NCBI GenBank assembly: GCA_036758585.1
Contig: DAIOWH010000003.1
Location: 6,152-70,151, forward strand
Direction of reading: 5' to 3'
From: Planctomycetia bacterium
GTDB taxonomy: Bacteria; Planctomycetota; Planctomycetia; JALXBF01; JBGPMX01
Length of the DNA: 64,000 nucleotides
Part shown: positions 2,966 to 64,000 of the stretch, piece by piece
How the letters are laid out: each line of letters starts with the position of its first letter
Numbering within the stretch: position 1 is the stretch's first letter
Notes under the pieces: generated by a model
What the model was told of the DNA's origin: nothing
Seen by the model: the letters and a program-made list of their open reading frames with translations, nothing else
The model's database searches: none
Translations under genes and position numbers: made by a program

Positions 2966-3108
2966 TGCGCTCCACACTGAAAGGGGTTTGAATTCGTTTA
3001 ACCCGCAGCCGCAGGCGAGGCACAACCAACGCCAGCCATGCCTCGCCTGCGGCTGCGGGTTAAACGACCGAAGCCGACTTCAGACCCTATTCAGTGTGGA
3101 GCGGTACT
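2966..3108. repeat. nested inverted repeat: perfect 26-bp stem / 16-nt loop hairpin (2997-3064) inside a 14-bp outer inverted repeat (2969-2982 / 3092-3105)
   Basis: TTTAACCCGCAGCCGCAGGCGAGGCA ... TGCCTCGCCTGCGGCTGCGGGTTAAA are exact reverse complements; CGCTCCACACTGAA / TTCAGTGTGGAGCG likewise; lies ~100-240 bp upstream of the giant-gene start. Confidence 0.85.
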
Positions 3109-3193
3109 AAGTCGTCCCGACGCGGCCTGTCGTGCATGGTCGCAAGGCGGGGATGCGTGACCGGGTTCAGTTCGAGGGGAAGAAGACGTCACC

Positions 3194-3198
3194 GAGGT
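3194..3198 (+). promoter_or_regulatory. Shine-Dalgarno GAGGT, 6 nt upstream of ATG 3205
   Basis: accGAGGTaagctcATG; same GAGGT core also precedes the second giant gene. Confidence 0.5.
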
Positions 3199-3204
3199 AA
3201 GCTC

Positions 3205-48621: not shown

Positions 48622-48861
48622 TCGGCAATATGTTGTAAGAATGCAACGCGCCGCTAGGTTGGGTGGGATGTACCAGCACGGCGGGTGGGCGGTGGCCTGC
48701 GAGGCGGCGTGTCGGCCGTTGGACTACAGCCTGAGAATGGAACTGTCGAAGTTCCAGCATGTCTCCGGGGGGAGGCTCTCCACGCCTGACGTTTTGCGGG
48801 CGGCCTTGATCGCCCGTGTTCTGCTTCCGCCGGTTACGGACAGGGGCGTTTTTTGGGAATC

Positions 48862-48866
48862 GAGGT
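48862..48866 (+). promoter_or_regulatory. Shine-Dalgarno GAGGT 8 nt upstream of ATG 48874
   Basis: tcGAGGTccaacaaATG. Confidence 0.5.
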
Positions 48867-48873
48867 CCAACAA

Positions 48874-51800
48874 ATGACGAGACCAGGGTCCGTGAACCGG
48901 CCTCCTCACTTGAAGGCGAAACGGCGGACACCGCGCAAGAGTTCCGGCCAAGGCATGTCTTTGGAACGGCTGGAAGAGCGCGTACTGTTGGCGTTGGATA
49001 TTCCGGAAGGCGCCCACCCCATTTTCGCGCCAGGTACTCCCCAGGAGTACATGGCGCAGCATCCTGATCACTTCCGAGAGAACGGGCTGCCTGGCGGGGC
49101 GCTCGGATTCACATTCAACGACGTGGACCGCTGGTCTCAGACGGCCACCGACGGCGCCGGGCTGAACCAGGGCGACCCCACAACGCTGACATGGGGCATC
49201 ATTGCCGACGGAACACTGATCAACACCGGCGCGACGAGCAACCTGATTGCTCGCATGGGCACCATTTACGGCAGCGTGGCGGGGCCGGTCAACGCCCAGC
49301 CGTGGTTCACGGTCTTCCAACAAGTCTTCGATAACCTGCAAGCGAACTCAGGTATCGACTATGTCTACCACGCGGCCGACGATGGCGTTCAGATGACGAA
49401 CGCCAATCGCGGCATCTTGGGAGTGCGCCCCGACATTCGAATCGGCGGTGCGAATATTGACGGGAACTCTGGCACGCTTGCCTATGCCTTTTTGCCGAAC
49501 TTTGGCGACATCGTCATCGACACCAACGACAACTTCTTCAACGACACCGGCGGCAACTCGCTGGGTTTTCGCAATGTGCTGGCTCACGAAGAGGGGCATG
49601 GCGTCGGACTCGGTCACTCTTGTCCGGTCGATCTGACGAAGCTCATGGAGCCGACCGTCACGTTCGCGTTTGACGGCCCGCAACATGACGACCTGTTGGG
49701 GATAAACCGCGGCTACGGCGATCGCCTGGAACCGAACGACAACACACTTTTTGCGACGGACCTGGGCGTGCTCAACGGGACGACTGCTTCCCTGAGCAAC
49801 GTCACCATCGACGACGATTCGGACCTCGATCTGTTTCGCTTCAGCGCCACAGGCCCCACCACGACAACCGTCACCGTTAACCCGTTTGGGTTCACCTACC
49901 CGTCGGGGCCCGAGATCGCGACCAGCACCTGTGGGGCGAACAATCCGAACTTCGACTCACTGAATCAGAGTGACCTGAGTCTGGAGATACTCGACAGCAC
50001 CGGCGCGATCATCGCCAACGCCAACGCCAACGGTCTGGGCGTGGGCGAGAACCTGGCGAACGTGACGTTGCCGGCGGCCGGCGACTATTTCGTGCGACTG
50101 CGTGGGGCCCAGAATGCCGCTCAGTTCTACACGCTCAGCGTGAACGTGGCCCAGTCGGCTACGGGCGGCGGCAAGAGCGGCAGCACCGTGCAACTGACGT
50201 CGGTGACGGCCGATGACGTGTTGAACACGCCGCGCGACACGTTCGGATTTGTGCTGCGCCGCAGCGAGATCGACGCGCTGGGAGGGCAGCCGGCCCTCGA
50301 TATCCGCGACCCCGTGTTGTTGCCCGACCCGGTGAACGACATCAAGGCGTTTACCGTGTTCTTCGACGGCGCACTCGACCCAATCAGCGCCGAAGATGAG
50401 GCGAACTACGACCTGCGCAGCACCGGCAATCCGGTGACCGCGTCCGATGATGGGCTGTTCGATACCACCGACGACTTCCAGTACCACGTCACTCCGCGCT
50501 ACATCACGACGCTCGACAACCCTGAAGACCTCGACACCAACCCCGACCCGGCCGTCGTGCTTGAAGTCCAGCTTCCGGCGGGACTGACCGAGTTCCCGTC
50601 CGGGCGGTTCCGTCTGACGGTGCGCGGCGGCGACCCGGTGCTGGGCGCCAACAACCTGCCGATTAACTCACAGGACGCGGGACCCGATGAAGTGTTGTAT
50701 TTCAAGACGGTTCATCGCCCCACGGCGCAGCCGCCCGACGGAGTGACCGCGAACGTCTATGTCGACGTGACCAACACGACGGCGCCGTTCCTTGGCACAA
50801 GCGCCGATCCGTTCAATGACATCCAGACCGGATTGAACGCAGCGGCGCCCGGCCAGACGGTGTTGGTGCGGTCGAACCTCGCCAGGGTCCCCTACGTTCA
50901 GGACGATCTGGCAAACGACGGCGTGCAGGATTTCGACCGCAATATCACAGTGCCTGCCAATGTTCGGCTGGTGTTCCAGCAGGGCGCGATCGTAAAGCTG
51001 CGCGATGCGATCATCGACGTGTCGGGTGCGAATGCGCAACTCGACGCGATTGGCACGTTCGACAACCCGGTCGTGTTCACCTCCTTTGCCGATACGCTGC
51101 CCGACACCGGCGCTCAGACCGGCGCGCCGAAGGCTGAAGACTGGGGCGGAATCGTTTTCCGCGCCGGCTCGGATAGCGCCGGGTCGCGGATAGAGTTTGC
51201 CGAGATACGCTACACGGGCGGCGAGGTCGGCAGCGTGCGCTATGGCGCGGTGCACGGCCTGACTTCCCAGCCGACGGTCACGAACACCATCATCACCAGT
51301 GCGGGGCAGGCCGCGTTCAGTTTCGACTTGTTGAGCTTTACCGGCACGGGTCCATCGCTCGCCGGCAACTTCCTGGAACGCAACACCATCAACGGCGTGC
51401 TCGTGGTGATCCCGCAGGGGACCACGGTGTCGAACGTGCCTGGCCAAGCCGTCATGTTCGATGACCCGATCGACCACGTCTTCACCCAAAGCCTGACGAT
51501 TCCCGGCGGGGCCAGCGTAACGACCAGCAATACGAACCTGAAACTGTCCAAGGCCGTCATCGATCTGCGCGGCGCGGCCGCAGCAGGAACGCCGTCATCG
51601 CTTACGGCCATCAACACCCACTTCACGTCGATTCAAGACGACACGACCGGTCGGACCGCCGACGAAGTGGGCAACCTGCAGACCGACGCCACCGGCAACG
51701 GCAGCGTGCTGGCGCCGCAGCCTGGCGACTGGGGCGGCATCGACGCAACCACCGACGATCCGACGCTGCCCCTCGGTCCGTCGCTGACCATTCTGAGCGA

Positions 51801-54800
51801 TGTGGACAACGCTGGCGCGCTGGCGGGCCAGATTCAGCCTGATCCGGCGCTCTCGCGTGTGGCCTTCGGCGCGGGCACGTTCCTGCGCGGCGGGTTTCCC
51901 CAGATCATCCGCGGGAACATCGACTACGGCGAGACCTTCGCCAACGATGGCAACTTGGCAGACTCGCACGGCAACACGATCAACATTCAGGGCACGACCA
52001 TCGCGTCCAGTTTGTCGGCGGGGCTGTTCCTGACCAACGCGGGCGGCGTGTTTCAGGACAACGATTTCCTGAGCAACAGCGACGCCGCAATCTCGATCGA
52101 CACCACCTCGTTCCACATCCTGCGCGACCCGGTGTTCCGGCGCAACATCACGCAGGGAAACCAACTCAACGCGCTGGCGATCCGGTCTGGGACCTTCGGC
52201 GGTGGTGCGGACCGCCTCTACGAGTTCAACGATCCGGACATCGTACACGTCGGCAGGGGCAACCTCGCGATCAGCGACGGTTCGGGGCTCGCCGTGCTCA
52301 CACTCCATCCGGGAGTCGCCTTCAAGGCTCAGTCGGGCGCGGGGCTGACGGTGACAGGCGCCGACTATCGCACCGCGTTCAACAATGTCGGCAACGGAGC
52401 GCTGGTGCTGGACGGCGACCCTGACGGTGCGCCGTTCCCCGGCAAGCTGGTGGGGCGATTCACCACGTCGTTTGCCGGCCTGAACAACGACTTGTCGTTC
52501 ACCGCGCGGGAACCGCTGCCGCGCGGGAACTTCACGATTCGGTTTGTGGCCACCGGTGCGTTGAGCGCCTCGGTGGTTCCAGGAGCGGGCATCGGGGGCG
52601 CCGATCGCATTGACATCACCATCGCAGCCGGTACGACCACTGCGAAACATGTGCGCGACGTGGTACTTCGTACGCCGCGCGTAGCGGCCGTGCTCGACGT
52701 CGCGCTCGCGGCCGATTCCGACGGCACCGGCCTGGTTGCCGCCCTCGCCGAGACCGCGCTGCCGTTGACTCCAGACGAATCGCCGCGCCCGATCCAGTTG
52801 ACCACGATCGCCGACGATTCGATCGGGCCTTCGGTGTTTCGGTTCGGCCAGGATGGCCGGCCGGGCCGAGCCGGCGTCGATGACGACGGCGATGGCTTGA
52901 CCGACGAGGGCGATGAGCTTGGGACCGCGGCCAGCGACGACGAGGCCGTTCCGCAAACCGACGCGCAGGGCAATGGAAGCAGCACGCCCACGGCAGCCGA
53001 CTTCTGGACCGGCCTCAATTACAGCTACTTCTCCAATGATCTCGTGCCCGAACGAGACATCAACGGCAACGGTGCGCTCGACCCTTGGGAAGACCTGAAC
53101 TCGAACGGCGTGTTCGATCAGCTTGAAGAAACGCTCGACTGGCGCACGAACAATACGGCTGGACTGGACATCGGCGAGGACCACGACCAGGACGGCGTGC
53201 TGGAACGCATCGTAGGCAACGTCGCCAACTTCATCGAAGTTCGGTTTGCAACCAACGGCATCCTGCACGAAGGACCACGACACAGCGCCACACTGGCCGA
53301 CTCGCACGATGGCGAACTCGGCGCCACAGGCGTCAACGAGAGCATCGCCACCGCGACCCCGCTGGGCAACATCGGCGGACGCGACGGCAATGATCAGGTG
53401 CCGTCGTTCCGGACCCCGAACCGCGCGCTGCGGGCGACCGGCAACATTGCCTCCGGCGCCGATGTGGACTTCTGGTCGTTTACGGCCAACCCCGGCAGTA
53501 CGATCACCATCGACATCGACCACACCACGACCCGTTGGGCCGGCGACAATCACCTCGACCCGATCGTCTCGCTGTTCTACGTAAAGCGCGACGATCCGGG
53601 CGCGGGCAAGTTGATTCTCTGGGCCGTCGCCAACAATAACGACTCCGCGGTGGACACGGTTCTGGATCCCCTCGAGCAAGACGACACCGATCCCGCCCTG
53701 ATCAACATCAACGTCCCGGGTATCGCGGCGGTCGACGACACCTACTACGCGGCCGTCACCGCGTTCAACAACCTGCCCGATTTCTTGTTCGCGCTGCCGC
53801 TCAGCGGCCCGGACATGCAACTCGCCAACTACGCCTGCACTGCGCGGCCGGACGGCGGGTTCGACGTCGTGGTACTTGACTTCGACGCGATTCGTTCGGA
53901 CGACACGTTCGACGAGAATAATGCGGTCGCCACGAACTGCCCGGGCCTGACCGGGCCTAACACAGGAGGGGGCGACAACGTCGGACAGTATTCGCTGCTC
54001 ATCCGTGAAACGCAGCGCGACATCGTCTATCCGAGCGGCTCGTTCGAGGTTACCAACAGCCAGTTTCGCAACATCACGGGCGACGCCGTTCGTATCGCCA
54101 CTCCGGCCGACCCGACCATGCGCGATCGGATCGCGCCAGCCGTTCACACCGGTGGTAACACGGCGCTGCCGACCAACGGCACCGGACCGACGCTGCTTGC
54201 CACCGGGGCTCGCATTGAGAACAACGAGTTCGCCAACATCGGCGACGACGGCGTGGAGCTGATCGGCGATCCGGGCGCCGGCCGCTCCATCCGGCACGAC
54301 TGGGTGTTGAACAACACGTTCTTCAACACCGGTACGGGCCTCGACCTGCGCAGCCGACTGGGCGCGACCGTGCTCAACAACATTTTCGCCGACGTGACCG
54401 GCACCGCGATCGCCAGCGACGGCACTTCGGCAGTGGGGTTGGGTGCAGGCACCGACAGCCTGGTCGTGTCGAACAACTTGTACCACTCGAACGGCGCGAA
54501 TGGCTTGTTGGGCACTGTGTTCTTCCCGAATCTGCAATCGCCTGCGAGTGATCCGCTGTTCTTCGATCCGACCGGCTTGTTCCCCGACCTGCGCATCACC
54601 GATAATTCGGCGGCGGTGGACAGCAGCCTGAGCGATCTCGAAGACCGCCTGGGCAACGTGCGTTTGTGGATGGGGGTGGACCCAAGTTCGCCAGTACCCG
54701 TTGGCGGCCTGAGGCCGGAGTCGCTGCTGGTCCCCGAACGTGTGGGACGCGACACCGCGTTGGACCGCAACCAGATTGAGCGCATCGATCTACCCGAGCT

Positions 54801-57800
54801 TTCGAACCCGAATCTCGGCTTGGGTGAGGATCCGTTCTTCGATATTGGCGCCAACGAGGCGACGGATTTCCTGCCGCCGCAGGTAATCCGATTGGGCCTC
54901 GCGCCGCAAAGCGACACCGGCGAAATCAACGAAGTCGAACCGCTGCGCACGCGGCAGTCGCGGCCAACCTTCCGCGGACTCGTGGTTGATTTCACCGAGA
55001 CTGTGGGACGGCCGGAGCTGGACGAGGTAGCCGGCCTGCAGGTGGACATTGACGTGGATGGCGATGGCTACGACGACGGCGCCGCGACGACCAGCCTGTT
55101 CTTCGACCCCGAAACCGGTTTTCCGGTGTTCTATAACGTCCGCAACAACGGGCTGGTCGTGGTGCGCGAAGTCAGTCTGCTGCCGACGGGCGCCGAGTTT
55201 CGACGCGTCGGCGTGTTCGAGGTTCAGTCAACGCTTGATATTGTTGACTCGGCCGACCTGACCATTCGCGCGCGTGTGCTCGACAAGGCCGGACGGTCAT
55301 CGGCCGACCGACCGTTGCGCATCGCGGTCGATACCGTGCGACCGGGGGTTCAGACCGTCACGTCGAGCCTCAGTTCGTCGGACCTGGTCATGGAGTTCGA
55401 CGAGCAGGTGCTGCTGGCCGGCAATAACCTTCAGGAGAACCTACAGCTCGAGGTGACGACCGGCGCGGCGGTCACGGCGGCGCCCGACCTGGCCAACGCG
55501 GCCCTTGTAGGCAACAGCGGCGGCGCGGCGGGCGACCTGTTCGGCACACAGCACACAGTGAATGACTTCGTCATCGCGCCGCTTCCAGTGGCCGGGTCCG
55601 ATGGTGCAGCCTTCTTCCGTGGCCCCTTCAACAATACAACGGGCGCCGATCGGCCCGTCATCACCGTCAACGAAACATCGGGCGCGAACCTGGACCTCGC
55701 ACCGGGGCGACTCTTCGAATTCCCTGGCCCAAACAACGACCTGTTGATTACCGGGCGCGGCGCGCTGCCCGACGACACGGTGGTGTCGGTCGAGTTCCGC
55801 CACGTCGCGCTGCCGAATCAGCCGCTGGGCGTGAGCGTCGTTCGCACCCAGGCGTCGTTGCCCACCGCGCTGGCCGGCGTGGACAACGACATCGTGTTCA
55901 CGGCGCACCCGACGAACTTCCCCGGCTCGGCGGGCAACGCACTGCGCATCGAGTATCGGGTCGCCGGCCTGAACACACCGCTCACCGTGGCGGTGAGCGG
56001 CGCCGCCATCACGGTGAACGTCGCGACCAACGCGACCGGCCAACCGACTAGCACGGCGGCCCAAGTGCGCGACGCGGTCAACGCAAGCGGGGCGGCCAGC
56101 ACGCGCGTATCCGCCGCACTGGCGTCGGGCAACAGCGGCACCGGCGTGGTCGCCGCCCTGCCCACCACGAGCCTCAGCGGTGGACGAGACGCCATTGGGG
56201 TTACGCTCGACACGGACGGAGCAGGCGCCGTCGATAGCACGACGAGCGGGCCGAACGCCGCCACGACTGTCCGCGACGCCATCAACGCCGCGGCCGGCAC
56301 ATTGGTAACCGCCTCGCTGACGCCGACCGACACGGGCGCCGCCAACACCGGCGCCGGCGCCGTCGCCGCGCACGCCGCCGCACCAATGAACACGGGCGAG
56401 TTCACCATATCGCTCTGGACGTTCATCCGCGACCACGGCGCCGGTCCGGGCGTGAGCAACGTCGATTTCCTGTCGCCCACGCGCCGCCCGCTGGCGACGA
56501 AACGCGACGCGACAACAGGCCAGGGTTGGTCGCTGGTGCTCGAGAACATCCCCACCGACTCGCCGGAGCAATTTCTGGTGTTCGAAGTGTACGACGCCGC
56601 CGGCGCACGTACGCACCGCATTCAATCGACCAGCGCCGTGCCGTCGAACCAGTGGGCGCATGTCGCCCTGTCGTATAACCCGGTCACCGCTGAGTGGCGG
56701 TTCCATCTGCTGCAATCCGCCTCCACCGTAATGGACCCGGACGGCGACGGCGCGGGCAACGACCGCCTGCACTTCGTGGCTGCTCAACCGGGGGCGATCG
56801 GCAACAGCGTATCGATCGACTACACGTTGGGGGCGGCCGAGCAAGTGTTCGTCACCGGCAGTGCGGTCACGGTGCAGCTCGTGGCCGGCACGACGACCGC
56901 AAACCGTGTGTTGCAGATGGTCGCCGCCGACCCAAACGCCTCGCAACTATTTGTCGGGCGTTTGGCGCCCGGCAGCAACGGAACCGCAGCGATAAGCCGG
57001 GCCGTGGCGACACGGTCGCTGACGGGCGGTCAAGGCCCTGCGGTGGTCACATCCGGCGAGACGCGGGCCGAGGTCACGATTGGGGCGGCGGCGTCCGCCG
57101 TCCGGTTCCAGGCGGTTCAAGCGGGCGCGGGCGGCAACGCGATTCGGGTTCAGTACACTGCGGGCGGCACGGCCCAAGTTTCCGTTGCCGGCAGCGACGT
57201 CACCGTGCAGGTGACGGGAACCACGACCGCGGCCCAAGTCGTGCAGTTGATCAACGCACACACTCAAGCCTCGCAACTGCTCCTTGCCCGGTTGCCTGAT
57301 GGATCGATCGGCGGCGGGCTAGTCGGCGCGGTTGGGTTCACGTCGCTCACCGGCGGCGTGTTCCCGCTCTCGGCGGCGACCACGGGCGACCTGCTGATCG
57401 GCGCCGAGGCGGTCCCGGCGGCGTCGGCCACGTTCGACGGGTTCATCGACGAAGTACAGATATGGAACCGCGACGTGTCGCTGGACGAAATCAGCCAGCT
57501 TCCGAGCGCGGAGCTTCCGCGAGCCATCGCGGTGCGCAACGTAACCGGAAGCAATCAGGACCTGCCGATCGTCGCCGTTTCGCTGACGACAGTGGCTGGC
57601 CGCACTCAGGTGACCGCGACCGTCGACGGCGATCCGACGACCGCCGGCGTTCAAGTCCTGCCGCGCGGCAATGTGTACGAGCTGGAAGTATTCGCCCAGC
57701 CGACGCTGACCGACGTGGCGGGCAACCGCATCAACGGTCGAGTCATTGCGTTCGGTGTGGGCGAGGACGTCTTCGACCTGAACACGTCGCAGTTCAACGC

Positions 57801-60800
57801 GCCCCCCGAGTTCCCGCTCGACCCGAACGGCCGCAATGACGCGCCGACCACGAACGTGTTTACCGATCTTGGCACAACCGCCCACCGCGCCGTTGTACTC
57901 GACTTCTCACAAAGCGATCTGACGGTCACTCCAGTCTCGGCGGCCCCGGCGCTGCCGGCTGACGAAGATTGGTTCCGCGTAGATGTGTTGGCTGCCGGCG
58001 AGTTCACGGCGGGCCTCACGGCTCGCGACCCCAACAACGACGGCGTGCTGAACGCCGACGAAGGAATAGTGGTCGAGGTGTTTCGAGCGGCCGACACAAC
58101 GACTCCGGTCGCCGCGGCCACACCCAGCCAAGTCGCCACGGCGACTCGGACTTCCGCGGTCTCCGTTTCGGCCCGCGAGCTGCTCTTCTTGCGAGTGCGC
58201 ACCGACGACGGCGACGACTTCAATCGTTATGAGCTGGAGTTGATCGTCAACGATTTGTTTGACGCGGCGGCCGGCTTCACGCTGCCGCCGGCCACAGGAC
58301 CGTTGCCGATCGACCTGGCGGGCCGGAACGATGACGCTCAAGCAATCATGGCGGCTACGCTGATCACAGCGTCGCTCGCCCCAGGCAATTCGGGGGCGGG
58401 CTTCGTGGCGCCGCTCGACTTCCCGCTGGCCGGCGGAGTCGATACGCCCGCCACACAGGCGACTCTCACCACCAGCGTGGCCGGTAACGACAACGACCTC
58501 GTGTTCACCGCAGTACCAGTGGGCGCCGCCGGCAATGGGATTCGCGTGCGGTATGTGAACGCCGGCGTCAATCAGCCGCTGGGCGTGACAATCGATGTAG
58601 CGAACCGCATCATCACGGTTAATCTGGCGACGAACGGCGCTGGCACAGTAACGACGACCGCCAATGACATTCTGCAACTGTTGCAGGTGCGAGCGACCGA
58701 CCTGGGCGGCGTCGCCGATCGCTCGCTCAGCGACTTCGTGGGCGGATCGGACCTCACCATCGCGGTCGACCCGGTGAGCGGCGCGCCCGACGTCGACTTT
58801 TATCGCATGACAAGCACGGCGGTGGGCACGCTGTCGCTGTTCATGAACGTGCGCGACCCGAACGGCGACGGCCAACTCGACGACGGCCTGGCCAGCGGCC
58901 GCGATGAACGCATCGACCTGGCGATCGTCAGTCCCGCCGATCCGTTGGGTGCGGCGCTGGCGACGGCGACGCAGTCGGTCCTGTCGCCGTTCCTGTTCGA
59001 GATTGTGAATCAGTCGGTGAGCACGGTCGGCCAGGAGTTCTGGGTCCGTGTGCGCGGCACGAGCGCTGAGTCGGCCAACGCCTACGACCTCCGAATGGTG
59101 AACGATGATCGGTTCGAGTTGGCCGCGTCTGTGGCGCCGGTCGGCGACGGCATTTTGCCGGACGATCCGGACGGTCGCAACGACGTGGTCGCCGCAGCCA
59201 CCGACTTGGGCACGGTTTTCACATTCGCCGAAGACGACCTAACGATCACGTTGGGCGACGGCGTGGTTCGCGATACCGACTTCTTCCTCTACACTGCGCC
59301 CGACGACCTGGTGTTCAACGTGTTTGCGGACGTAGCCGACATCAACCGCAACGGCGCGCTCGACGCCGCCGAGACGCTTGGCCTCGAAGTGCTCGACCCC
59401 ACGGGCACGACCGTACTGGCCACCGGGTCGGTGTTCGGAACGTTCCCCGGCAGTGTGATTGTCGATTCGGGGTTTGTTCAGCTTGCGTCGGGCCAGTCGG
59501 TGCTGATCCGCGTGTTCGGTTCGGCCGGTGTCGCCAACAGCTACGATCTGCGGGCCTTGGCCGACGACCGGTTCGATCATCCGTTCCGGTCGGGCACGGT
59601 CGCGAAACCAGGCGGCGTCGATCCGGCCGGTCGCAACGACTCGTCGGACGACGCCAGCGGCGCTGGGGCCGATGATGTACGGCGCACCGATTTGGGTACG
59701 GTCGTTCACCTGACCGAGAACTTCCTGCGTGTTTCCGACGAAGACAGCCACAATTTCCTGTTCACCGCACCGACGCCGGCGGCGGGTCTCGACGGCCAGA
59801 CGCTCACGATCGACGACGGACTGAACCCGCCGACTATCTTTGAGTTCGACAACAATGGCAGCACGGCGCTGGGCCAGGTGGGAGTGAACTTTGCCGCGTT
59901 GACGACGGCCGATGAGCTGGCCGCAGCGATCCGCAGCGTCATCAACGGGATCGGTGCGGCCCTGAACGCAACGGCGTCGGGCAGCGGCTCGCAGGTCGCC
60001 GTGTCGAGCGCGATCCGCGTCGTGAGTGGTGCGTTCCCGATCGCCGCGGCGCACGACGGCGATTGGTTCCGCGTGACGGCCGCCGTATCGGGTGCGCTCG
60101 GCATCCACGTAGACCTGATCGACGCCGATCGCAACAACCAGATCGACGCCGTCGAAATCCTCGGACTCGAACTGTACGAACTGGACCCAATGACCAACCG
60201 GGCGGGCGATCGGCTCGCGGTTGGCGTGCTCGACGTGGTGAGCCGTCAGGTTCGTATTGACGGCTACCCTGCGATGGACGGCGAATCGTTCCTGGTGCGC
60301 GTCCGTGAGGGTGTGAACTTGCCCGTCGCCGCCGTGTCTGGCGGGGCGACGGTGACGTGCAATCTACAGCCGTTGGGGCCGCCAGCGCCGGCCCCCGTTG
60401 GGCAACCAAACGACGACCTTTCGAGTGGGCCGTTCAACCTTGGCTTCACGTTCGAGTTCTTCGGCAACAACTTTACGCAGTTCTTCGTGAACAATAACGG
60501 CAATATCACGTTCACCGCGCCGCTGTTCTCATTTACGGCAACGGGCTTTCCGAACCCCTTTGGTATTGCGATGGTGGCCCCGTTCTGGGCGGACGTCGAC
60601 ACCCGCGGTGCGGGTTCCGGCCTGACGCGACTGCAACAAGGCACCAACCCATCGACCGGGCGACCGTTCATCCAGGTGGACTGGCCCGATGTCGGATACT
60701 TCAGCAGCAACGTTGACAAGCTGAACGACTTCTCACTGTACATCGAAGATGATCCGTTGGGCGACCTCATCTGCTTCGACTATCGCGATATGGAATGGAC

Positions 60801-63800
60801 AACGGGCGATGTGTCGGGCGGCACCAATGGGTTTGGAGGTACGGGCGCCGCTATTGGTTTCGATGCGGGCGATGGAGTGAACTTCATCAGTTTGGGCCGA
60901 CCCAACGATGCGACCGGAGTGGCGGCGTTTGCGAACCGGACTGAGGTTTTCGTGCTTGGGCCAGGCGGTGTGCCGGGAGCGCCGCCGAGTCCGCCGCCGC
61001 CGGGAACGGTCAACGCGTCGAATGACGGCGGCAACGACCAGGTTTCGCCTGCCGCCGCGATCAATCCGCTGGACACCCGGGACGTCGCGTCTGTCGTTCA
61101 AAGTGTGGACAACAACACCGGTGCATCGGTGGTGGATGTCCTCGCGTCGAACGACGGCGGCCTGACGTTCACACGCACGCGGTTTACATCTACGTTTGAC
61201 GCGCTCGGATCGGGTCGTCGTTCGAGTCCCGACGCGGTGTTCGACGCCAACGGGAACCTGTACGTCGCGTACGCATTCGATAATGGAACGACGCGTCGAG
61301 TCGTGGTGACACGCAGCACCGACCAGGGCCTGACGTTCAGCGCGCCTGCGTTGCTTACTCCACTAGGGGCCGGGGCTGTTCCCGAGACAGTCTCGGTCGC
61401 GACTGGCCGCGACGTCGTGAACCCGAACCAGCAAAACGTATTCGTCGCTTGGAGTGAAGTAGGCGGCGGTACGGGACTCGGCCAGCGCATCGCTGTAGCC
61501 GGCGCGGCGGCATCGACCCCGGGTGGCACGATCAACCCGTTCAGTTTCACGGTCACCAAGGACGCATCGTCCAATGCAGCGACCGGTCAACAACCGCGCA
61601 CGCCCGACATCGGCGTGGACCGCGCCGGACGGGTCTTCGCCACGTGGACCGACTACGGGTCGAGCCCCAACCCGATTCGTCTCGCACGGGACGATAATTT
61701 CTTTGGAACCGGTCTGGCGGGGTTTGGTTCGGCCAGCGTGGTGACCACGAACCACGTCGGGTTCCGGCGATCGGTCCCAGCGCAGCCGCAGCGCGGAGTC
61801 AGTGCCAGTCCGTCGATTGCCATCGATCGCAGCGATGCGGCCGATCCCGACTTCGGCCGGAATTCCGGGCGAATCTACGTCGCGTACACCGAAACCGGTC
61901 TGGACGGCGTCGGGGACCTGGACACGTTCCTGCGCTTCTCGGACGATGCCGGCGCCTCTTGGAGCCGCCCACAGCGGATCAACTCGCAGAACCGGGCGAG
62001 CCAGTTCAATCCTGCGATCACCGTCGATTCGACCACGGGACATGTTTTTGCCGTCTGGCAGGACACACGTCGCGATGTGGCGAACACCCTCGCCGAGCCG
62101 TTCATCGCACAGAGCATCGACGGCGGGCTGAACTTCCAACTCGACGTGGCACTCGCCACCGCGCCGTCTAGTCAGGCGGGGAATGCCGAACCGATCGAAG
62201 ATTTCGGCGATCGGATGGGCATTGCCGCGGCCAGTCATGTCGTGTTCGCCGCATGGGCCGACAACACGGCTCAGGCTACGGATTTGGAAACACTCACGAA
62301 CCGGCTGGTGCAGGTGGGCGGGCGCAATTTCTACAACCTGACGGTCGACAACTCCGATCGGCGTGAGTTGCAGACGGTGGACCGTGAGTTCGACGCGACA
62401 CTGAACTCGGGGAACCTCTTTGCATCCACCGACGGCGTCGCCGGCATCGGAGTCGCCGGGCCGCTCGCCACATTGGACGAGTTCACCGGCGCGGGGACCG
62501 TGCAGACTGAGATCGATACGCTGCCGGCGTTCGTTCAGCGCGTCGCTGGGGCGATTGGCGATATCGACTTCAGCCCAACCGGCGAATTGGTGGGCGGAAC
62601 GGCCTTCGTCAGTTCCGCACAGCCTGGCGAGACGCTAGTGTTCGTCGATCCGGACACCGGCCTCGTGTACAACCAGGCGACTATCACCGGAGTGGGACTG
62701 CCGCAGAGTTTCTCGGTCACCGCGCTCGAGTTCCAACCGGGCAGCGGCACGCTGTTCGTCGCCTTGGACTTTGATCCGGGGACCAAGGGATCGCCGTCGC
62801 AGTTGGGTACGATCAACGTCGCCGGTTGCGGCGTGGGAACTTGCACGGTCAACTTGCTGGGCCAGACGAACGTCGGCGAGATAGGCGGGCTGGCGTTCAA
62901 TCCGGTCAGCGGCGAGCTCTACGGCGTCACGTCGACCAGCGTCGGTGGCGGCGACTTTGTCGTGCTCAGCACAACGACCGGTGCGGCCATCTCGACGGTG
63001 CCGTCGGGCCGCCGCGACTACACCGGACTCGAATTCTCGCTCGATGGACTCGCGCTCTACGGCGTGCTGGGGCCGGATGAAACCATCGGCGCCCCCGGTG
63101 ACCTGGTGTCTATCGATCCGTTCACCGGCCAAGCCGGCACGATTGGCGCAACAAGTCTGATCGATCCGCGCACGGCCGGCCCATTGCCAAACGCGATCAG
63201 CGGCATCAGCTTCCGACCGCGGCGCAACGAGCGGCCGCAAGCGGGCACGGGCGGCGGCCGCTTGGCTCAGGTCACGGAAGCCGACATGACGCTGCTCGAA
63301 GGCGAAGAGGATTGGTATCGCATTCAGATGCCGGTCGCGGGCGGGTTGACCGTACGGCTGGACCTGCCCGACTCCGTACCAACCGATCGAAACTCGGACG
63401 GCCGAGACAACGACGGCGATACGCTAGTCGACGAGGGCGACGAGTTCGTGTTTGGCTTCCTCGACGCTCAAGAACAACTTGGACTCGAACTGTACGACAG
63501 CACCGGCGCAGTCCTGCTGGCCACGGGCGTGGTCGACGACCTGGCCGCGGTCGACGGCAGCGGATTCGGCGTGTTCATCGACCACCAATCCGTCACGCCG
63601 GTGGCAGGCGCCGTAGACCCATTCCTTTTGGTTCGAGTGTTCGGCGCCGCCGGATCGTTCAACGAATACGACCTGGTCGTAAGGAACAACGACCGATTCG
63701 ACCAGGCTTTGGTCCCGTCGGCCCTGTTTGGGTCGGACGCGGCCGGCCAGCTTGTGACGGTTAATGGCAGCACCGGGCTGACCACCGCCGTCGGGCCACT

Positions 63801-64000
63801 CGCGCCAGTGCCGACCGACATCGAATTCCATCCGCGCGATGTACTGTTCGGCGAAAGTCGGGCGGCGGCAGGCAGCTTCAACAATCTGCTCCGAGTTGAT
63901 CCCGCCACGGGCACTACGACGGTGGTGTGTGCGGCCGCGCCGTGCGACAACACGGTGTTCGCCATTACGGCGCTGGAGTTCGATGCGACGGTCGGTTCGC
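48874..64000 (+). CDS. second giant multidomain protein (5' partial in window: >=5,042 codons, no stop before window end) with N-terminal metzincin zinc-metalloprotease head
   Basis: frame-1 reading from ATG 48874 remains open to position 64000 (verified at the motif sites and window end; absent from ORF track because no stop in window); alternative start ATG 48955 (MSLERLEERVLL...); domain vocabulary parallels gene 1. Confidence 0.85.
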   Translation, partial: MTRPGSVNRPPHLKAKRRTPRKSSGQGMSLERLEERVLLALDIPEGAHPIFAPGTPQEYMAQHPDHFRENGLPGGALGFTFNDVDRWSQTATDGAGLNQGDPTTLTWGIIADGTLINTGATSNLIARMGTIYGSVAGPVNAQPWFTVFQQVFDNLQANSGIDYVYHAADDGVQMTNANRGILGVRPDIRIGGANIDGNSGTLAYAFLPNFGDIVIDTNDNFFNDTGGNSLGFRNVLAHEEGHGVGLGHSCPVDLTKLMEPTVTFAFDGPQHDDLLGINRGYGDRLEPNDNTLFATDLGVLNGTTASLSNVTIDDDSDLDLFRFSATGPTTTTVTVNPFGFTYPSGPEIATSTCGANNPNFDSLNQSDLSLEILDSTGAIIANANANGLGVGENLANVTLPAAGDYFVRLRGAQNAAQFYTLSVNVAQSATGGGKSGSTVQLTSVTADDVLNTPRDTFGFVLRRSEIDALGGQPALDIRDPVLLPDPVNDIKAFTVFFDGALDPISAEDEANYDLRSTGNPVTASDDGLFDTTDDFQYHVTPRYITTLDNPEDLDTNPDPAVVLEVQLPAGLTEFPSGRFRLTVRGGDPVLGANNLPINSQDAGPDEVLYFKTVHRPTAQPPDGVTANVYVDVTNTTAPFLGTSADPFNDIQTGLNAAAPGQTVLVRSNLARVPYVQDDLANDGVQDFDRNITVPANVRLVFQQGAIVKLRDAIIDVSGANAQLDAIGTFDNPVVFTSFADTLPDTGAQTGAPKAEDWGGIVFRAGSDSAGSRIEFAEIRYTGGEVGSVRYGAVHGLTSQPTVTNTIITSAGQAAFSFDLLSFTGTGPSLAGNFLERNTINGVLVVIPQGTTVSNVPGQAVMFDDPIDHVFTQSLTIPGGASVTTSNTNLKLSKAVIDLRGAAAAGTPSSLTAINTHFTSIQDDTTGRTADEVGNLQTDATGNGSVLAPQPGDWGGIDATTDDPTLPLGPSLTILSDVDNAGALAGQIQPDPALSRVAFGAGTFLRGGFPQIIRGNIDYGETFANDGNLADSHGNTINIQGTTIASSLSAGLFLTNAGGVFQDNDFLSNSDAAISIDTTSFHILRDPVFRRNITQGNQLNALAIRSGTFGGGADRLYEFNDPDIVHVGRGNLAISDGSGLAVLTLHPGVAFKAQSGAGLTVTGADYRTAFNNVGNGALVLDGDPDGAPFPGKLVGRFTTSFAGLNNDLSFTAREPLPRGNFTIRFVATGALSASVVPGAGIGGADRIDITIAAGTTTAKHVRDVVLRTPRVAAVLDVALAADSDGTGLVAALAETALPLTPDESPRPIQLTTIADDSIGPSVFRFGQDGRPGRAGVDDDGDGLTDEGDELGTAASDDEAVPQTDAQGNGSSTPTAADFWTGLNYSYFSNDLVPERDINGNGALDPWEDLNSNGVFDQLEETLDWRTNNTAGLDIGEDHDQDGVLERIVGNVANFIEVRFATNGILHEGPRHSATLADSHDGELGATGVNESIATATPLGNIGGRDGNDQVPSFRTPNRALRATGNIASGADVDFWSFTANPGSTITIDIDHTTTRWAGDNHLDPIVSLFYVKRDDPGAGKLILWAVANNNDSAVDTVLDPLEQDDTDPALININVPGIAAVDDTYYAAVTAFNNLPDFLFALPLSGPDMQLANYACTARPDGGFDVVVLDFDAIRSDDTFDENNAVATNCPGLTGPNTGGGDNVGQYSLLIRETQRDIVYPSGSFEVTNSQFRNITGDAVRIATPADPTMRDRIAPAVHTGGNTALPTNGTGPTLLATGARIENNEFANIGDDGVELIGDPGAGRSIRHDWVLNNTFFNTGTGLDLRSRLGATVLNNIFADVTGTAIASDGTSAVGLGAGTDSLVVSNNLYHSNGANGLLGTVFFPNLQSPASDPLFFDPTGLFPDLRITDNSAAVDSSLSDLEDRLGNVRLWMGVDPSSPVPVGGLRPESLLVPERVGRDTALDRNQIERIDLPELSNPNLGLGEDPFFDIGANEATDFLPPQVIRLGLAPQSDTGEINEVEPLRTRQSRPTFRGLVVDFTETVGRPELDEVAGLQVDIDVDGDGYDDGAATTSLFFDPETGFPVFYNVRNNGLVVVREVSLLPTGAEFRRVGVFEVQSTLDIVDSADLTIRARVLDKAGRSSADRPLRIAVDTVRPGVQTVTSSLSSSDLVMEFDEQVLLAGNNLQENLQLEVTTGAAVTAAPDLANAALVGNSGGAAGDLFGTQHTVNDFVIAPLPVAGSDGAAFFRGPFNNTTGADRPVITVNETSGANLDLAPGRLFEFPGPNNDLLITGRGALPDDTVVSVEFRHVALPNQPLGVSVVRTQASLPTALAGVDNDIVFTAHPTNFPGSAGNALRIEYRVAGLNTPLTVAVSGAAITVNVATNATGQPTSTAAQVRDAVNASGAASTRVSAALASGNSGTGVVAALPTTSLSGGRDAIGVTLDTDGAGAVDSTTSGPNAATTVRDAINAAAGTLVTASLTPTDTGAANTGAGAVAAHAAAPMNTGEFTISLWTFIRDHGAGPGVSNVDFLSPTRRPLATKRDATTGQGWSLVLENIPTDSPEQFLVFEVYDAAGARTHRIQSTSAVPSNQWAHVALSYNPVTAEWRFHLLQSASTVMDPDGDGAGNDRLHFVAAQPGAIGNSVSIDYTLGAAEQVFVTGSAVTVQLVAGTTTANRVLQMVAADPNASQLFVGRLAPGSNGTAAISRAVATRSLTGGQGPAVVTSGETRAEVTIGAAASAVRFQAVQAGAGGNAIRVQYTAGGTAQVSVAGSDVTVQVTGTTTAAQVVQLINAHTQASQLLLARLPDGSIGGGLVGAVGFTSLTGGVFPLSAATTGDLLIGAEAVPAASATFDGFIDEVQIWNRDVSLDEISQLPSAELPRAIAVRNVTGSNQDLPIVAVSLTTVAGRTQVTATVDGDPTTAGVQVLPRGNVYELEVFAQPTLTDVAGNRINGRVIAFGVGEDVFDLNTSQFNAPPEFPLDPNGRNDAPTTNVFTDLGTTAHRAVVLDFSQSDLTVTPVSAAPALPADEDWFRVDVLAAGEFTAGLTARDPNNDGVLNADEGIVVEVFRAADTTTPVAAATPSQVATATRTSAVSVSARELLFLRVRTDDGDDFNRYELELIVNDLFDAAAGFTLPPATGPLPIDLAGRNDDAQAIMAATLITASLAPGNSGAGFVAPLDFPLAGGVDTPATQATLTTSVAGNDNDLVFTAVPVGAAGNGIRVRYVNAGVNQPLGVTIDVANRIITVNLATNGAGTVTTTANDILQLLQVRATDLGGVADRSLSDFVGGSDLTIAVDPVSGAPDVDFYRMTSTAVGTLSLFMNVRDPNGDGQLDDGLASGRDERIDLAIVSPADPLGAALATATQSVLSPFLFEIVNQSVSTVGQEFWVRVRGTSAESANAYDLRMVNDDRFELAASVAPVGDGILPDDPDGRNDVVAAATDLGTVFTFAEDDLTITLGDGVVRDTDFFLYTAPDDLVFNVFADVADINRNGALDAAETLGLEVLDPTGTTVLATGSVFGTFPGSVIVDSGFVQLASGQSVLIRVFGSAGVANSYDLRALADDRFDHPFRSGTVAKPGGVDPAGRNDSSDDASGAGADDVRRTDLGTVVHLTENFLRVSDEDSHNFLFTAPTPAAGLDGQTLTIDDGLNPPTIFEFDNNGSTALGQVGVNFAALTTADELAAAIRSVINGIGAALNATASGSGSQVAVSSAIRVVSGAFPIAAAHDGDWFRVTAAVSGALGIHVDLIDADRNNQIDAVEILGLELYELDPMTNRAGDRLAVGVLDVVSRQVRIDGYPAMDGESFLVRVREGVNLPVAAVSGGATVTCNLQPLGPPAPAPVGQPNDDLSSGPFNLGFTFEFFGNNFTQFFVNNNGNITFTAPLFSFTATGFPNPFGIAMVAPFWADVDTRGAGSGLTRLQQGTNPSTGRPFIQVDWPDVGYFSSNVDKLNDFSLYIEDDPLGDLICFDYRDMEWTTGDVSGGTNGFGGTGAAIGFDAGDGVNFISLGRPNDATGVAAFANRTEVFVLGPGGVPGAPPSPPPPGTVNASNDGGNDQVSPAAAINPLDTRDVASVVQSVDNNTGASVVDVLASNDGGLTFTRTRFTSTFDALGSGRRSSPDAVFDANGNLYVAYAFDNGTTRRVVVTRSTDQGLTFSAPALLTPLGAGAVPETVSVATGRDVVNPNQQNVFVAWSEVGGGTGLGQRIAVAGAAASTPGGTINPFSFTVTKDASSNAATGQQPRTPDIGVDRAGRVFATWTDYGSSPNPIRLARDDNFFGTGLAGFGSASVVTTNHVGFRRSVPAQPQRGVSASPSIAIDRSDAADPDFGRNSGRIYVAYTETGLDGVGDLDTFLRFSDDAGASWSRPQRINSQNRASQFNPAITVDSTTGHVFAVWQDTRRDVANTLAEPFIAQSIDGGLNFQLDVALATAPSSQAGNAEPIEDFGDRMGIAAASHVVFAAWADNTAQATDLETLTNRLVQVGGRNFYNLTVDNSDRRELQTVDREFDATLNSGNLFASTDGVAGIGVAGPLATLDEFTGAGTVQTEIDTLPAFVQRVAGAIGDIDFSPTGELVGGTAFVSSAQPGETLVFVDPDTGLVYNQATITGVGLPQSFSVTALEFQPGSGTLFVALDFDPGTKGSPSQLGTINVAGCGVGTCTVNLLGQTNVGEIGGLAFNPVSGELYGVTSTSVGGGDFVVLSTTTGAAISTVPSGRRDYTGLEFSLDGLALYGVLGPDETIGAPGDLVSIDPFTGQAGTIGATSLIDPRTAGPLPNAISGISFRPRRNERPQAGTGGGRLAQVTEADMTLLEGEEDWYRIQMPVAGGLTVRLDLPDSVPTDRNSDGRDNDGDTLVDEGDEFVFGFLDAQEQLGLELYDSTGAVLLATGVVDDLAAVDGSGFGVFIDHQSVTPVAGAVDPFLLVRVFGAAGSFNEYDLVVRNNDRFDQALVPSALFGSDAAGQLVTVNGSTGLTTAVGPLAPVPTDIEFHPRDVLFGESRAAAGSFNNLLRVDPATGTTTVVCAAAPCDNTVFAITALEFDATVGS
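48958..48996 (+). other. N-terminal 'LERLEERVLLALD' motif after basic leader
   Basis: MTRPGSVNRPPHLKAKRRTPRKSSGQGMSLERLEERVLLALD. Confidence 0.6.
49000..49700 (+). other. metzincin (matrixin-like, M10-type) zinc metalloprotease catalytic domain
   Basis: HEEGHGVGLGH = HExxHxxGxxH (codons 49585-49617) followed by Met-turn 'TKLMEPT'; no PRCG cysteine-switch seen. Confidence 0.75.
49720..50150 (+). other. PPC-like domain immediately after the metalloprotease
   Basis: 'RLEPNDNTLFATDLGVLNGTTASLSNVTIDDDSDLDLFRFSATGPTTTTVTV.....YFVRLRGAQNAAQFYTLSVNV' matches EPND..A..l / D.D.(Y/F).F PPC pattern. Confidence 0.55.
50740..52450 (+). other. parallel beta-helix region I (homolog of gene-1 7200-9480)
   Basis: 'VVFTSFADTLPDTGAQTGAPKAEDWGGIVFRAGSDSAGSRIEFAEIRYTGG' parallels gene-1 motif. 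Confidence 0.45.
52873..52920 (+). other. thrombospondin-type-3-like Ca-binding motif
   Basis: GVDDDGDGLTDEGDEL; same DGLTDEGDE core at gene-1 39760-39825 and at 63385-63450. Confidence 0.4.
53950..54700 (+). other. parallel beta-helix module II (homolog of gene-1 23160-23900)
   Basis: NNEFANIGDDGVEL, NNTFFNTGTGLDL, NNIFADVTGTAIA, SNNLYHSNGANGL ... DPLFFDP....ITDNSAAVDSS. Confidence 0.5.
55860..56350 (+). repeat. module A copies in gene 2
   Basis: 'DNDIVFTAHPTNFPGSAGNALRIEYRVAGLNTPLTVAVSGAAITVNVATNATGQPTSTAAQVRDAVNASGAAS....GNSGTGVVAALPTTSLSGG'. Confidence 0.55.
57340..57540 (+). other. LamG-like (Laminin_G_3) domain C-terminal portion
   Basis: 'FDGFIDEVQIWNRDVSLDEISQL'. Confidence 0.5.
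60400..60960 (+). other. NIDO-like domain
   Basis: 'FNLGFTFEFFGNNFTQFFVNNNGNITF.....GIAMVAPFWADVDTRG.....FIQVDWPDVGYF......FSLYIEDDPLGDLICFDYRDMEWTTGD' (APFWADVD codons 60577-60600). Confidence 0.6.
61000..62300 (+). other. BNR/Asp-box beta-propeller
   Basis: LASNDGGLTFTRT, TRSTDQGLTFSAP, RFSDDAGASWSRP, AQSIDGGLNFQLD; 'TNHVGFRRSVPAQPQRGVSASPSIAIDRS'. Confidence 0.65.
62400..63240 (+). other. unassigned beta-propeller-like module (gene-2 copy; another begins ~63710)
   Basis: '...DIDFSPTGELVGG...LVFVDPDTGLVY....SVTALEFQPGSGTLFVALD....EIGGLAFNPVSGELYGVTS....LEFSLDGLALYGVLG....GDLVSIDPFTGQAG....ISFRPRRNE'. Confidence 0.4.

Follow-up and report, generated by a model that had tools for sequence, protein, structure and literature searches.

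A predicted matrixin-headed giant gene next to a paralogous subtilase-headed giant gene in a planctomycete

We analysed a stretch of 64,000 nucleotides from a Planctomycetia bacterium (assembly GCA_036758585.1, contig DAIOWH010000003.1, positions 6,152 to 70,151 of the forward strand; hereafter, the window), with a GC content of 65%. Two giant genes, here called gene 1 and gene 2, lie on it one after the other. Judged from their sequences, they are tandem paralogues with unrelated protease heads, Peptidase_S8 in gene 1 and Peptidase_M10 in gene 2, and gene 2, on which we focus, genuinely encodes a protein of exported type and giant size (>5,042 amino acids, aa). Both are longer than the 5 kb of coding sequence (CDS) that define a giant gene (Reva & Tummler, as cited in PMC5177795), with at least 15.1 kb for gene 2 and 45.5 kb for gene 1. 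The first part of gene 2 and the region just before it contain the following features:

48622..48873, + strand: intergenic spacer of 252 bp, containing three stops in frame 1 and a single weak terminator-like hairpin (48795-48818)
48862..48866, + strand: Shine-Dalgarno (SD)-like GAGGT, 7 nt before the gene 2 ATG (direct reading)
48874..64000, + strand: gene 2 CDS, complete at the 5' end and truncated by the window at the 3' end (lack of stops, GC content at third codon positions (GC3), domains, homology to gene 1)
48874..48993, + strand: N-terminal leader, with LERLEERVLLA at aa 30-40 (match to the published consensus)
49156..49728, + strand: matrixin-like Peptidase_M10 catalytic domain, ~aa 95-285 (Pfam, family alignment, PDB profiles, AlphaFold2 (AF2) and Foldseek)
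49585..49617, + strand: zinc motif HEEGHGVGLGH (HExxHxxGxxH), aa 238-248 (direct reading, family alignment)
49642..49653, + strand: Met-turn LMEP, within the family-invariant KLMEP (aa 256-260)
49804..50226, + strand: PPC beta-sandwich closing the head cassette, aa 311-451 (sub-threshold Pfam match, Foldseek, in-house hidden Markov model (HMM))

Direct translation of frame 1 from ATG 48874 to base 64000 gave 5,042 codons without a stop, as had been claimed by an earlier reading of the letters alone (the original prediction), and the SD that it placed ahead of this ATG is present. It had also described the gene as missed by the list of open reading frames (ORFs): gene 2 is indeed unlisted there, the reason being that ORFs running off the end of the window were omitted. 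At the local base composition, with a stop frequency of 0.024 per codon, the probability that such a frame stays open by chance is ~1e-53. Furthermore, GC3 ranged from 0.74 to 0.83 in all ten 1.5-kb segments of the frame, and this uniformly high value indicates that gene 2 is one continuous coding frame.

The stop codon of gene 1 lies at 48619-48621, in the same frame 1 as gene 2, and a GAGGT identical to that of gene 2 precedes the likely gene 1 start, ATG 3205. The possibility of a single gene with a read-through stop was rejected: three in-frame stops lie between the two ORFs, and an SD, an ATG, and a leader of its own mark the start of gene 2, so the genes are separate. In the spacer no sigma-70-like promoter was found and the hairpin was no stronger than those of shuffled sequence; an Rfam scan of the entire window gave no match.

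The head of gene 2 was assigned to the matrixins by several lines of evidence. Pfam PF00413 (Peptidase_M10) matched with 38.3 bits against a cut-off of 24, the alignment covering only profile positions 64-159 of 159. The metzincin signature and the downstream Met-turn on which the original prediction relied were both recovered, the signature exactly where it had been placed, and the metzincin profile search suggested there is the one that passes the Pfam cut-off. The zinc-site residues H, E, H, G, and H are invariant across 33 family members and are all kept in gene 2. This motif is the sole HExxH of gene 2 within the window, and gene 1 has none. Among metzincins, a Ser after the third zinc-binding His is a marker of the matrixin subfamily; gene 2 has this Ser directly after the His (...GLGHS), and its relatives have HS or HV. 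A profile of M10 heads matched stromelysin-3, karilysin, collagenases, and other matrix metalloproteinases (MMPs) in the PDB, with E-values from 3.5e-9 to 1e-4. The AF2 model of the head had a mean pLDDT of 75, with values of 85-97 over most of the catalytic core, and Foldseek aligned it with karilysin (2xs3, E 1.1e-4, target-normalised TM 0.63). On this evidence from sequence and modelled structure, the head of gene 2 is predicted to be a complete matrixin-like zinc endopeptidase domain with its catalytic residues intact.

The PPC domain behind it scored 23.2 bits in Pfam, slightly under the cut-off of 25.9; Foldseek related it to the collagen-binding domain of ColH/ColG (E 6e-7), and the in-house PPC-like HMM recognized it with an E-value of 5e-22.

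The search of gene 2 aa 1-480 against 5.8 billion proteins returned 485 matches, with identities of 49-51% for the best ones and no self-match. The best 120 of the 485 were 370-790 aa long, and those bearing a name were mostly matrixin family metalloproteases, from Planctomycetota, Acidobacteriota, and others. Likewise, an exhaustive HMMER search with gene 2 aa 60-1259 against 1.84 billion cluster representatives retrieved 2,084 of them at E<=1e-3 and 1,167 at E<=1e-30. Among the best 150 of the 2,084, the lengths were 443-3,665 aa and the top-scoring stretch was always confined to gene 2 aa ~70-430; the largest (3,665 aa) consists of an M10+PPC head followed by long Ig-like arrays. Since the relatives match this part of gene 2 only, the M10+PPC head appears to be a common self-contained protease cassette. 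Indeed, in hundreds of other bacteria the cassette is usually a stand-alone secreted-type protease of 430-800 aa, the identity of the gene 2 head to hundreds of M10+PPC proteins is 45-54%, and a metagenome scan with gene 2 aa 1-600 found only stand-alone matrixins, at 39-41% identity. Among the proteins compared, gene 2 has the longest body fused to such a head.

A side observation concerns latency in this family. Animal MMP zymogens have a cysteine-switch propeptide, PRCGxPD. In most M10+PPC relatives whose signal peptide is of the classical hydrophobic type, a Cys is conserved shortly ahead of the catalytic domain, in the motif CFAPGTP. This Cys is absent from most relatives with the planctomycete ExLExR leader, including gene 2 (IFAPGTP, aa 48-56 region). 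It could be a cysteine-switch-like latency element that was lost or replaced in leader-type proteins.

In the leader of gene 2, LERLEERVLLA is preceded by a basic stretch with 8 K/R among the first 29 aa; aa 28-40 read MSLERLEERVLLA, and there is no hydrophobic signal peptide. The leader of gene 1 is FALERLEERVLLS, ~65 aa past its likely start. Both agree with RRLxxExLExRxLLA, a planctomycete-specific cell-surface export signal (Studholme et al. 2004, as quoted in PMC8567305). An equivalent motif is present in 52 proteins of T. immobilis, 20 of them detected by proteomics and two carrying N-terminal trypsin domains, and in 8/10 of its longest proteins (4,016-10,566 aa) (PMC8567305). The same kind of leader was found in 27/253 M10-head relatives, and the leader-bearing head relatives are annotated as Planctomycetota. 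These annotations, the leader itself, a neighbouring DUF1501 gene, and the GC content of 65% make an origin in Planctomycetota likely.

The main features of gene 1 are these:

3094..48621, + strand: gene 1 ORF of 15,175 aa, or 15,138 aa from the likely start (ORF reading, Pfam)
3397..3429, + strand: leader LERLEERVLLS (consensus match)
3892..4695, + strand: Peptidase_S8 head (Pfam PF00082, 155.6 bits, cut-off 21.8)
~42500-47400, + strand: tail of 16 Big_13 (979 bits) and 13 Big_6 (290 bits) Ig-like repeats (Pfam)

The S8 catalytic triad is intact and in the subtilase order, D274/H329/S500 (DSG at 274, HGTH at 329, and GTSFASP at 498). Behind the heads, BLASTP aligned the two proteins over the following collinear blocks:

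gene 2 aa 606-956 (50689..51741) with gene 1 aa 1349-1733: 33% identity
gene 2 aa 1713-3074 with gene 1 aa 6685-8215: 27-28% identity
gene 2 aa 3275-3632 with gene 1 aa 10674-11019: 42% identity
gene 2 aa 4046-5023 with gene 1 aa 11357-12343: 46% identity, 694 bits

Overall, identity in the collinear blocks was 25-52%, and the last ~1,000 aa of the windowed part of gene 2 were 52% identical to gene 1 in a separate alignment. The heads have the leader alone in common, and collinearity begins at gene 2 aa 485 and gene 1 aa 1080. Because collinearity resumes right behind heads that share nothing beyond the leader, the arrangement points to a clean head swap. The tandem pair of paralogous giants with a serine and a zinc head, as originally proposed, is thus upheld by both Pfam matches and by the collinear blocks. 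The claim that the order of modules in gene 2 mirrors that of gene 1 holds in large part: the NIDO domain of gene 2 has no counterpart at the matching position of gene 1, and large additional blocks are present in gene 1 (FG-GAP, NHL, and the Ig-like tail).

The body of gene 2, behind the head, is composed as follows:

52471..52770, + strand: Module A copy 1, aa 1200-1299 (in-house HMM)
54025..54507, + strand: right-handed beta-helix, aa 1718-1878 (Pfam Beta_helix, 46 bits)
55870..56187, + strand: Module A copy 2, aa 2333-2438 (in-house HMM)
56350..56703, + strand: Laminin_G_3 (LamG; concanavalin-A-like lectin), aa 2493-2610 (Pfam, 39 bits)
56746..57360, + strand: Module A copies 3 and 4, aa 2625-2720 and 2736-2829 (in-house HMM)
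57943..58341, + strand: PPC-like module, aa 3024-3156 (in-house HMM)
58477..58785, + strand: Module A copy 5, aa 3202-3304 (in-house HMM)
58771..60399, + strand: three PPC-like modules, aa 3300-3440, 3461-3592, and 3722-3842 (in-house HMM)
60478..60894, + strand: NIDO (nidogen-like) domain, aa 3869-4007 (Pfam, 68.9 bits)
61009..63999, + strand: block best conserved with gene 1, aa 4046-5042 (BLASTP, alignment, Pfam, in-house HMM)

In the last block, a BNR/sialidase-like propeller is accompanied by another propeller-like region and, at aa 4805-4964, by a PPC-like module. Of the modules listed in the original prediction, the beta-helix, LamG, NIDO, Module A, and PPC-like modules were recovered, BNR/BNR_2 remained sub-threshold in Pfam (BNR_2 at aa 4332-4397), and no Ig-type Pfam domain was detected in the windowed part of gene 2.

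Module A and the PPC-like module were defined by iterated in-house HMMs. The PPC-like module (137 aa) occurs in the head and in five internal copies in gene 2, and in ~15 copies in gene 1. Module A (105 aa) occurs five times in full length in gene 2 and at least nine times in gene 1 (e.g., 13330-13650 and 25405-25734). Its AF2 model is an alpha/beta fold of six strands and one helix (pLDDT 86.6, pTM 0.81). It belongs to no Pfam family, with weak hints to Phage_sheath_domII and Flagellin_IN (E ~0.01), and Foldseek found no match in the PDB (best E 2.4). Module A may represent an undescribed domain family.

Gene 2 shows several features of extracellular-type proteins: the leader, an acidic composition (D+E 11.8% vs K+R 5.4%), few Cys (10 in 5,042 aa), and domains of binding type (PPC, LamG, NIDO, BNR, and beta-helix). 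No transmembrane-like segment was found in it. Regarding composition, both giants have 0.4-0.5% Lys, 0.2-0.3% Cys, ~11.7% D+E vs ~5% K+R, and more than 30% T+A+G. The near-absence of Lys exceeds the obvious effect of Arg/Lys codon bias at this GC content; a possible benefit is protection from Lys-specific proteases.

Searches with the body found almost no relatives beyond this locus. Gene 2 aa 481-1300 gave one 47-bit match among the 5.8 billion proteins; the profile of the block conserved between the two genes gave six matches of at most 59 bits, all generic BNR_2; the alignment of this block found nothing in species-representative genomes; and gene 2 aa 431-5042 had no match among PDB sequences. 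Neither giant, nor an orthologue, was found in the 5.8-billion-protein index. The genes are missing from the databases because the short-read assemblies of the same organism break near the start of gene 1.

The reading that we favour, with rather more belief than doubt, is that gene 2 encodes an exported acidic scaffold displaying a zinc protease, and that it arose together with gene 1 by tandem duplication and a head swap. A giant surface-protein gene would have been duplicated in tandem, and the N-terminal enzyme cassette of one copy would then have been replaced. The product would be exported via a leader-dependent route, and its body could form an extended binding and spacer scaffold that keeps the protease on the cell surface or farther out. 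Such a scaffold could steer the protease to polymers, for instance those of particles, of a biofilm matrix, or of other cells, and the zinc and serine heads could provide two complementary endopeptidase specificities on similar scaffolds.

A number of points weigh against this reading. Pfam PF07595 (Planc_extracel) matched neither N-terminus, even at E<=10, and the leader assignment therefore depends on direct matching to the consensus; the PF07595 model is short and was built on Rhodopirellula sequences, and an export-motif HMM was likewise rebuilt for another genus in PMC8567305. The body is, by sequence comparison, nearly an orphan outside this locus, so that its binding role is suggested by generic domain types only. 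The C-terminus of gene 2, including any anchor or sorting signal, lies beyond the edge of the window; a search with the last 500 aa among genome contigs and metagenome contigs found no continuation. In addition, no cysteine switch (PRCGxPD) or other latency element was identified in gene 2, a cysteine switch being absent because there is no Cys upstream of aa 250. Finally, action on external substrates and self-processing fit the present evidence alike.

Self-processing is at the core of the first alternative, in which the heads act in cis and each giant is a polyprotein cut into functional pieces by its own, or its neighbour's, N-terminal protease. S8 subtilases normally autoprocess their propeptide, ~150 aa separate the leader from the S8 domain in gene 1, and both heads are catalytically intact by sequence. 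Cis processing has already been proposed for the N-terminal S8/C39 domains of Omnitrophota giants (bioRxiv 10.1101/2023.11.21.568195). Against it, the M10+PPC cassette occurs in hundreds of relatives as a complete stand-alone protease of secreted type, which has nothing to cut in cis; no linker or cleavage-site motif was seen to recur between the modules; and PPC domains, as the ColH/ColG matches recall, serve secreted proteases that attack external substrates, in a substrate-binding or accessory role. The occurrence of the cassette as a stand-alone protein argues for external substrates while leaving room for self-processing, and we regard the cis hypothesis as unlikely without being far-fetched.

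A further proposal, somewhat more doubtful still, extends the favoured reading of a protease-displaying scaffold to both genes: the neighbours could be a co-expressed cooperating pair, lineage-specific giant stalks with exchangeable enzymatic tips that attack proteinaceous surfaces. Two long fibres would then show a serine and a zinc endopeptidase together, one possibly activating the other. Their targets could be prey cells, particles, or host matrix, which would make them the planctomycete counterpart of the predation-associated giants of Omnitrophota, and orphan modules such as Module A could be new structural or binding domains.

It is very improbable that gene 2 is a copy of gene 1 in decay or without function, its frame still open in the window by chance. 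Its divergence as a tandem paralogue (25-52% identity), the position of its 3' end outside the window, and the lack of close orthologues in public data would suit decay. The opposite is indicated by 5,042 stop-free codons (~1e-53), by the strong and uniform GC3, by the intact catalytic motif and family-invariant residues, and by its own SD, start, and export leader.

Least credible of all is that the head-body junction is an assembly chimera, in which similar PPC modules caused a stand-alone matrixin gene to be joined with internal sequence of a giant gene: short-read contigs of the same organism (6.8 and 2.7 kb) do stop near the start of gene 1, and the head PPC resembles internal PPC-like modules at the protein level, but frame, GC3, and codon signal are unbroken across the junction, collinearity with gene 1 starts directly behind the head, and gene 1 independently shows the same head-plus-body logic. 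A repeat-driven chimera in particular was rejected: long near-identical DNA repeats and tandem arrays are both absent from the window, repeat copies reach at most 83% identity, over stretches shorter than 100 nt, and the junction (50.0-50.5 kb) is free of such copies and of anything repetitive.

To place the preferred reading of an exported, protease-displaying giant among known systems, we compared the locus with described families. Planctomycetes are rich in giant genes (PMC5177795, PMC12673574). Among the closest systems are the planctomycete surface proteins with an export motif, whose N-terminal region shares with both genes a basic stretch followed by ExLExRxLL(A/S); this class includes most of the longest planctomycete proteins, as well as some trypsin-headed members (PMC8567305). 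Compared to the class in T. immobilis, the heads here are M10 and S8, gene 1 is longer (15,175 aa), and the bodies have no detectable homologues elsewhere. The head of gene 2 resembles the bacterial matrixin and PPC proteases and karilysin of Tannerella forsythia in HExxHxxGxxH followed by Ser, the Met-turn, and the MMP-like fold, and the former also in the PPC behind the catalytic domain. Unlike these matrixins, gene 2 runs more than 4,500 residues further, its relatives being mostly of 430-800 aa and at most 3,665 aa among the best 150.

The Archaeovorins and Dockerin-type giants of Omnitrophota, also members of the PVC superphylum, similarly have an N-terminal peptidase (S8/C39) near the export signal and have been proposed to attack polymers or cells outside (bioRxiv 10.1101/2023.11.21.568195). 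They differ in having many transmembrane segments and SecA-like and glycosyl-transferase/hydrolase domains, and M10 heads are not reported there. Membership in this group was rejected: no SecA-like or glycosyl-transferase/hydrolase Pfam domain was found in genes 1 or 2, and gene 2 has no transmembrane-like segment. The planctomycete leader and the GC content of 65% are further differences. Fibrillar and RTX adhesins and MARTX toxins are also very long, acidic, repeat-rich extracellular proteins, and MARTX toxins embed a protease domain. Membership among the RTX adhesins exported by type I secretion systems (T1SS) was rejected as well: neither RTX/HemolysinCabind repeats nor a T1SS-type C-terminus were found in the complete gene 1, and here export signal and protease are N-terminal. 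Giant1-5 of Apilactobacillus kunkeei are described as consecutive paralogous genes for giant extracellular proteins at one locus (PMC12863079), as here; they differ in belonging to Firmicutes and in measuring 3,000-8,000 aa.

The original prediction had called the pairing of the two heads undescribed. Indeed, no description of an M10-headed protein of more than 5,000 aa, or of a paralogous S8/M10 pair, was found in the open-access literature. The novelty was overstated, however, as the leader class, which the original prediction had not recognised, protease-headed giants, S8/C39-headed Omnitrophota giants, tandem giants, and M10+PPC fusions are all known. The S8/M10 locus is therefore an incremental variation within a described class, with no new principle.

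Some observations concern gene 1 and the region before it. The copies of the Big_13/Big_6 array in its tail are just 60-79% identical in DNA, indicating an old, diverged array with no recent expansion. No recognisable sorting or anchor motif was found in the last 200 aa, and the protein has only two marginal hydrophobic stretches. The upstream neighbours (63-2475) encode two proteins, one with DUF1501 (293 bits) and one with a five-bladed PD40/TolB-like beta-propeller; FtsH lies farther upstream on a related contig. Identical copies of these proteins are encoded on an NCBI contig of 107,716 bp, which probably includes the entire window and the 3' end of gene 2. At 2968-3103, ~100 nt ahead of the probable start of gene 1, there is a nested, near-perfect palindrome of 136 nt, with inner arms of 29 nt that are 100% complementary and outer arms of 29 nt at 86%. 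Folded as RNA it reaches -104 kcal/mol (z = -13 vs shuffles). It occurs as a single copy in the window and gave no Rfam match, and nothing equivalent lies upstream of gene 2. About 140 nt downstream of the palindrome, around position 3242, the short-read contigs of this organism stop.

The locus again shows how giant genes of this kind are lost from short-read assemblies and protein databases. If expressed, it would represent a clean natural experiment in modular evolution, with megadalton-scale scaffolds that differ chiefly in their protease cap, and it would support the view of planctomycete giant surface proteins as enzyme-display platforms, beyond adhesins and spacers. The pair also offers a concrete case in which to ask whether proteases at the N-terminus of giant proteins cut external substrates or the giant protein itself, a question already raised for the Omnitrophota giants.

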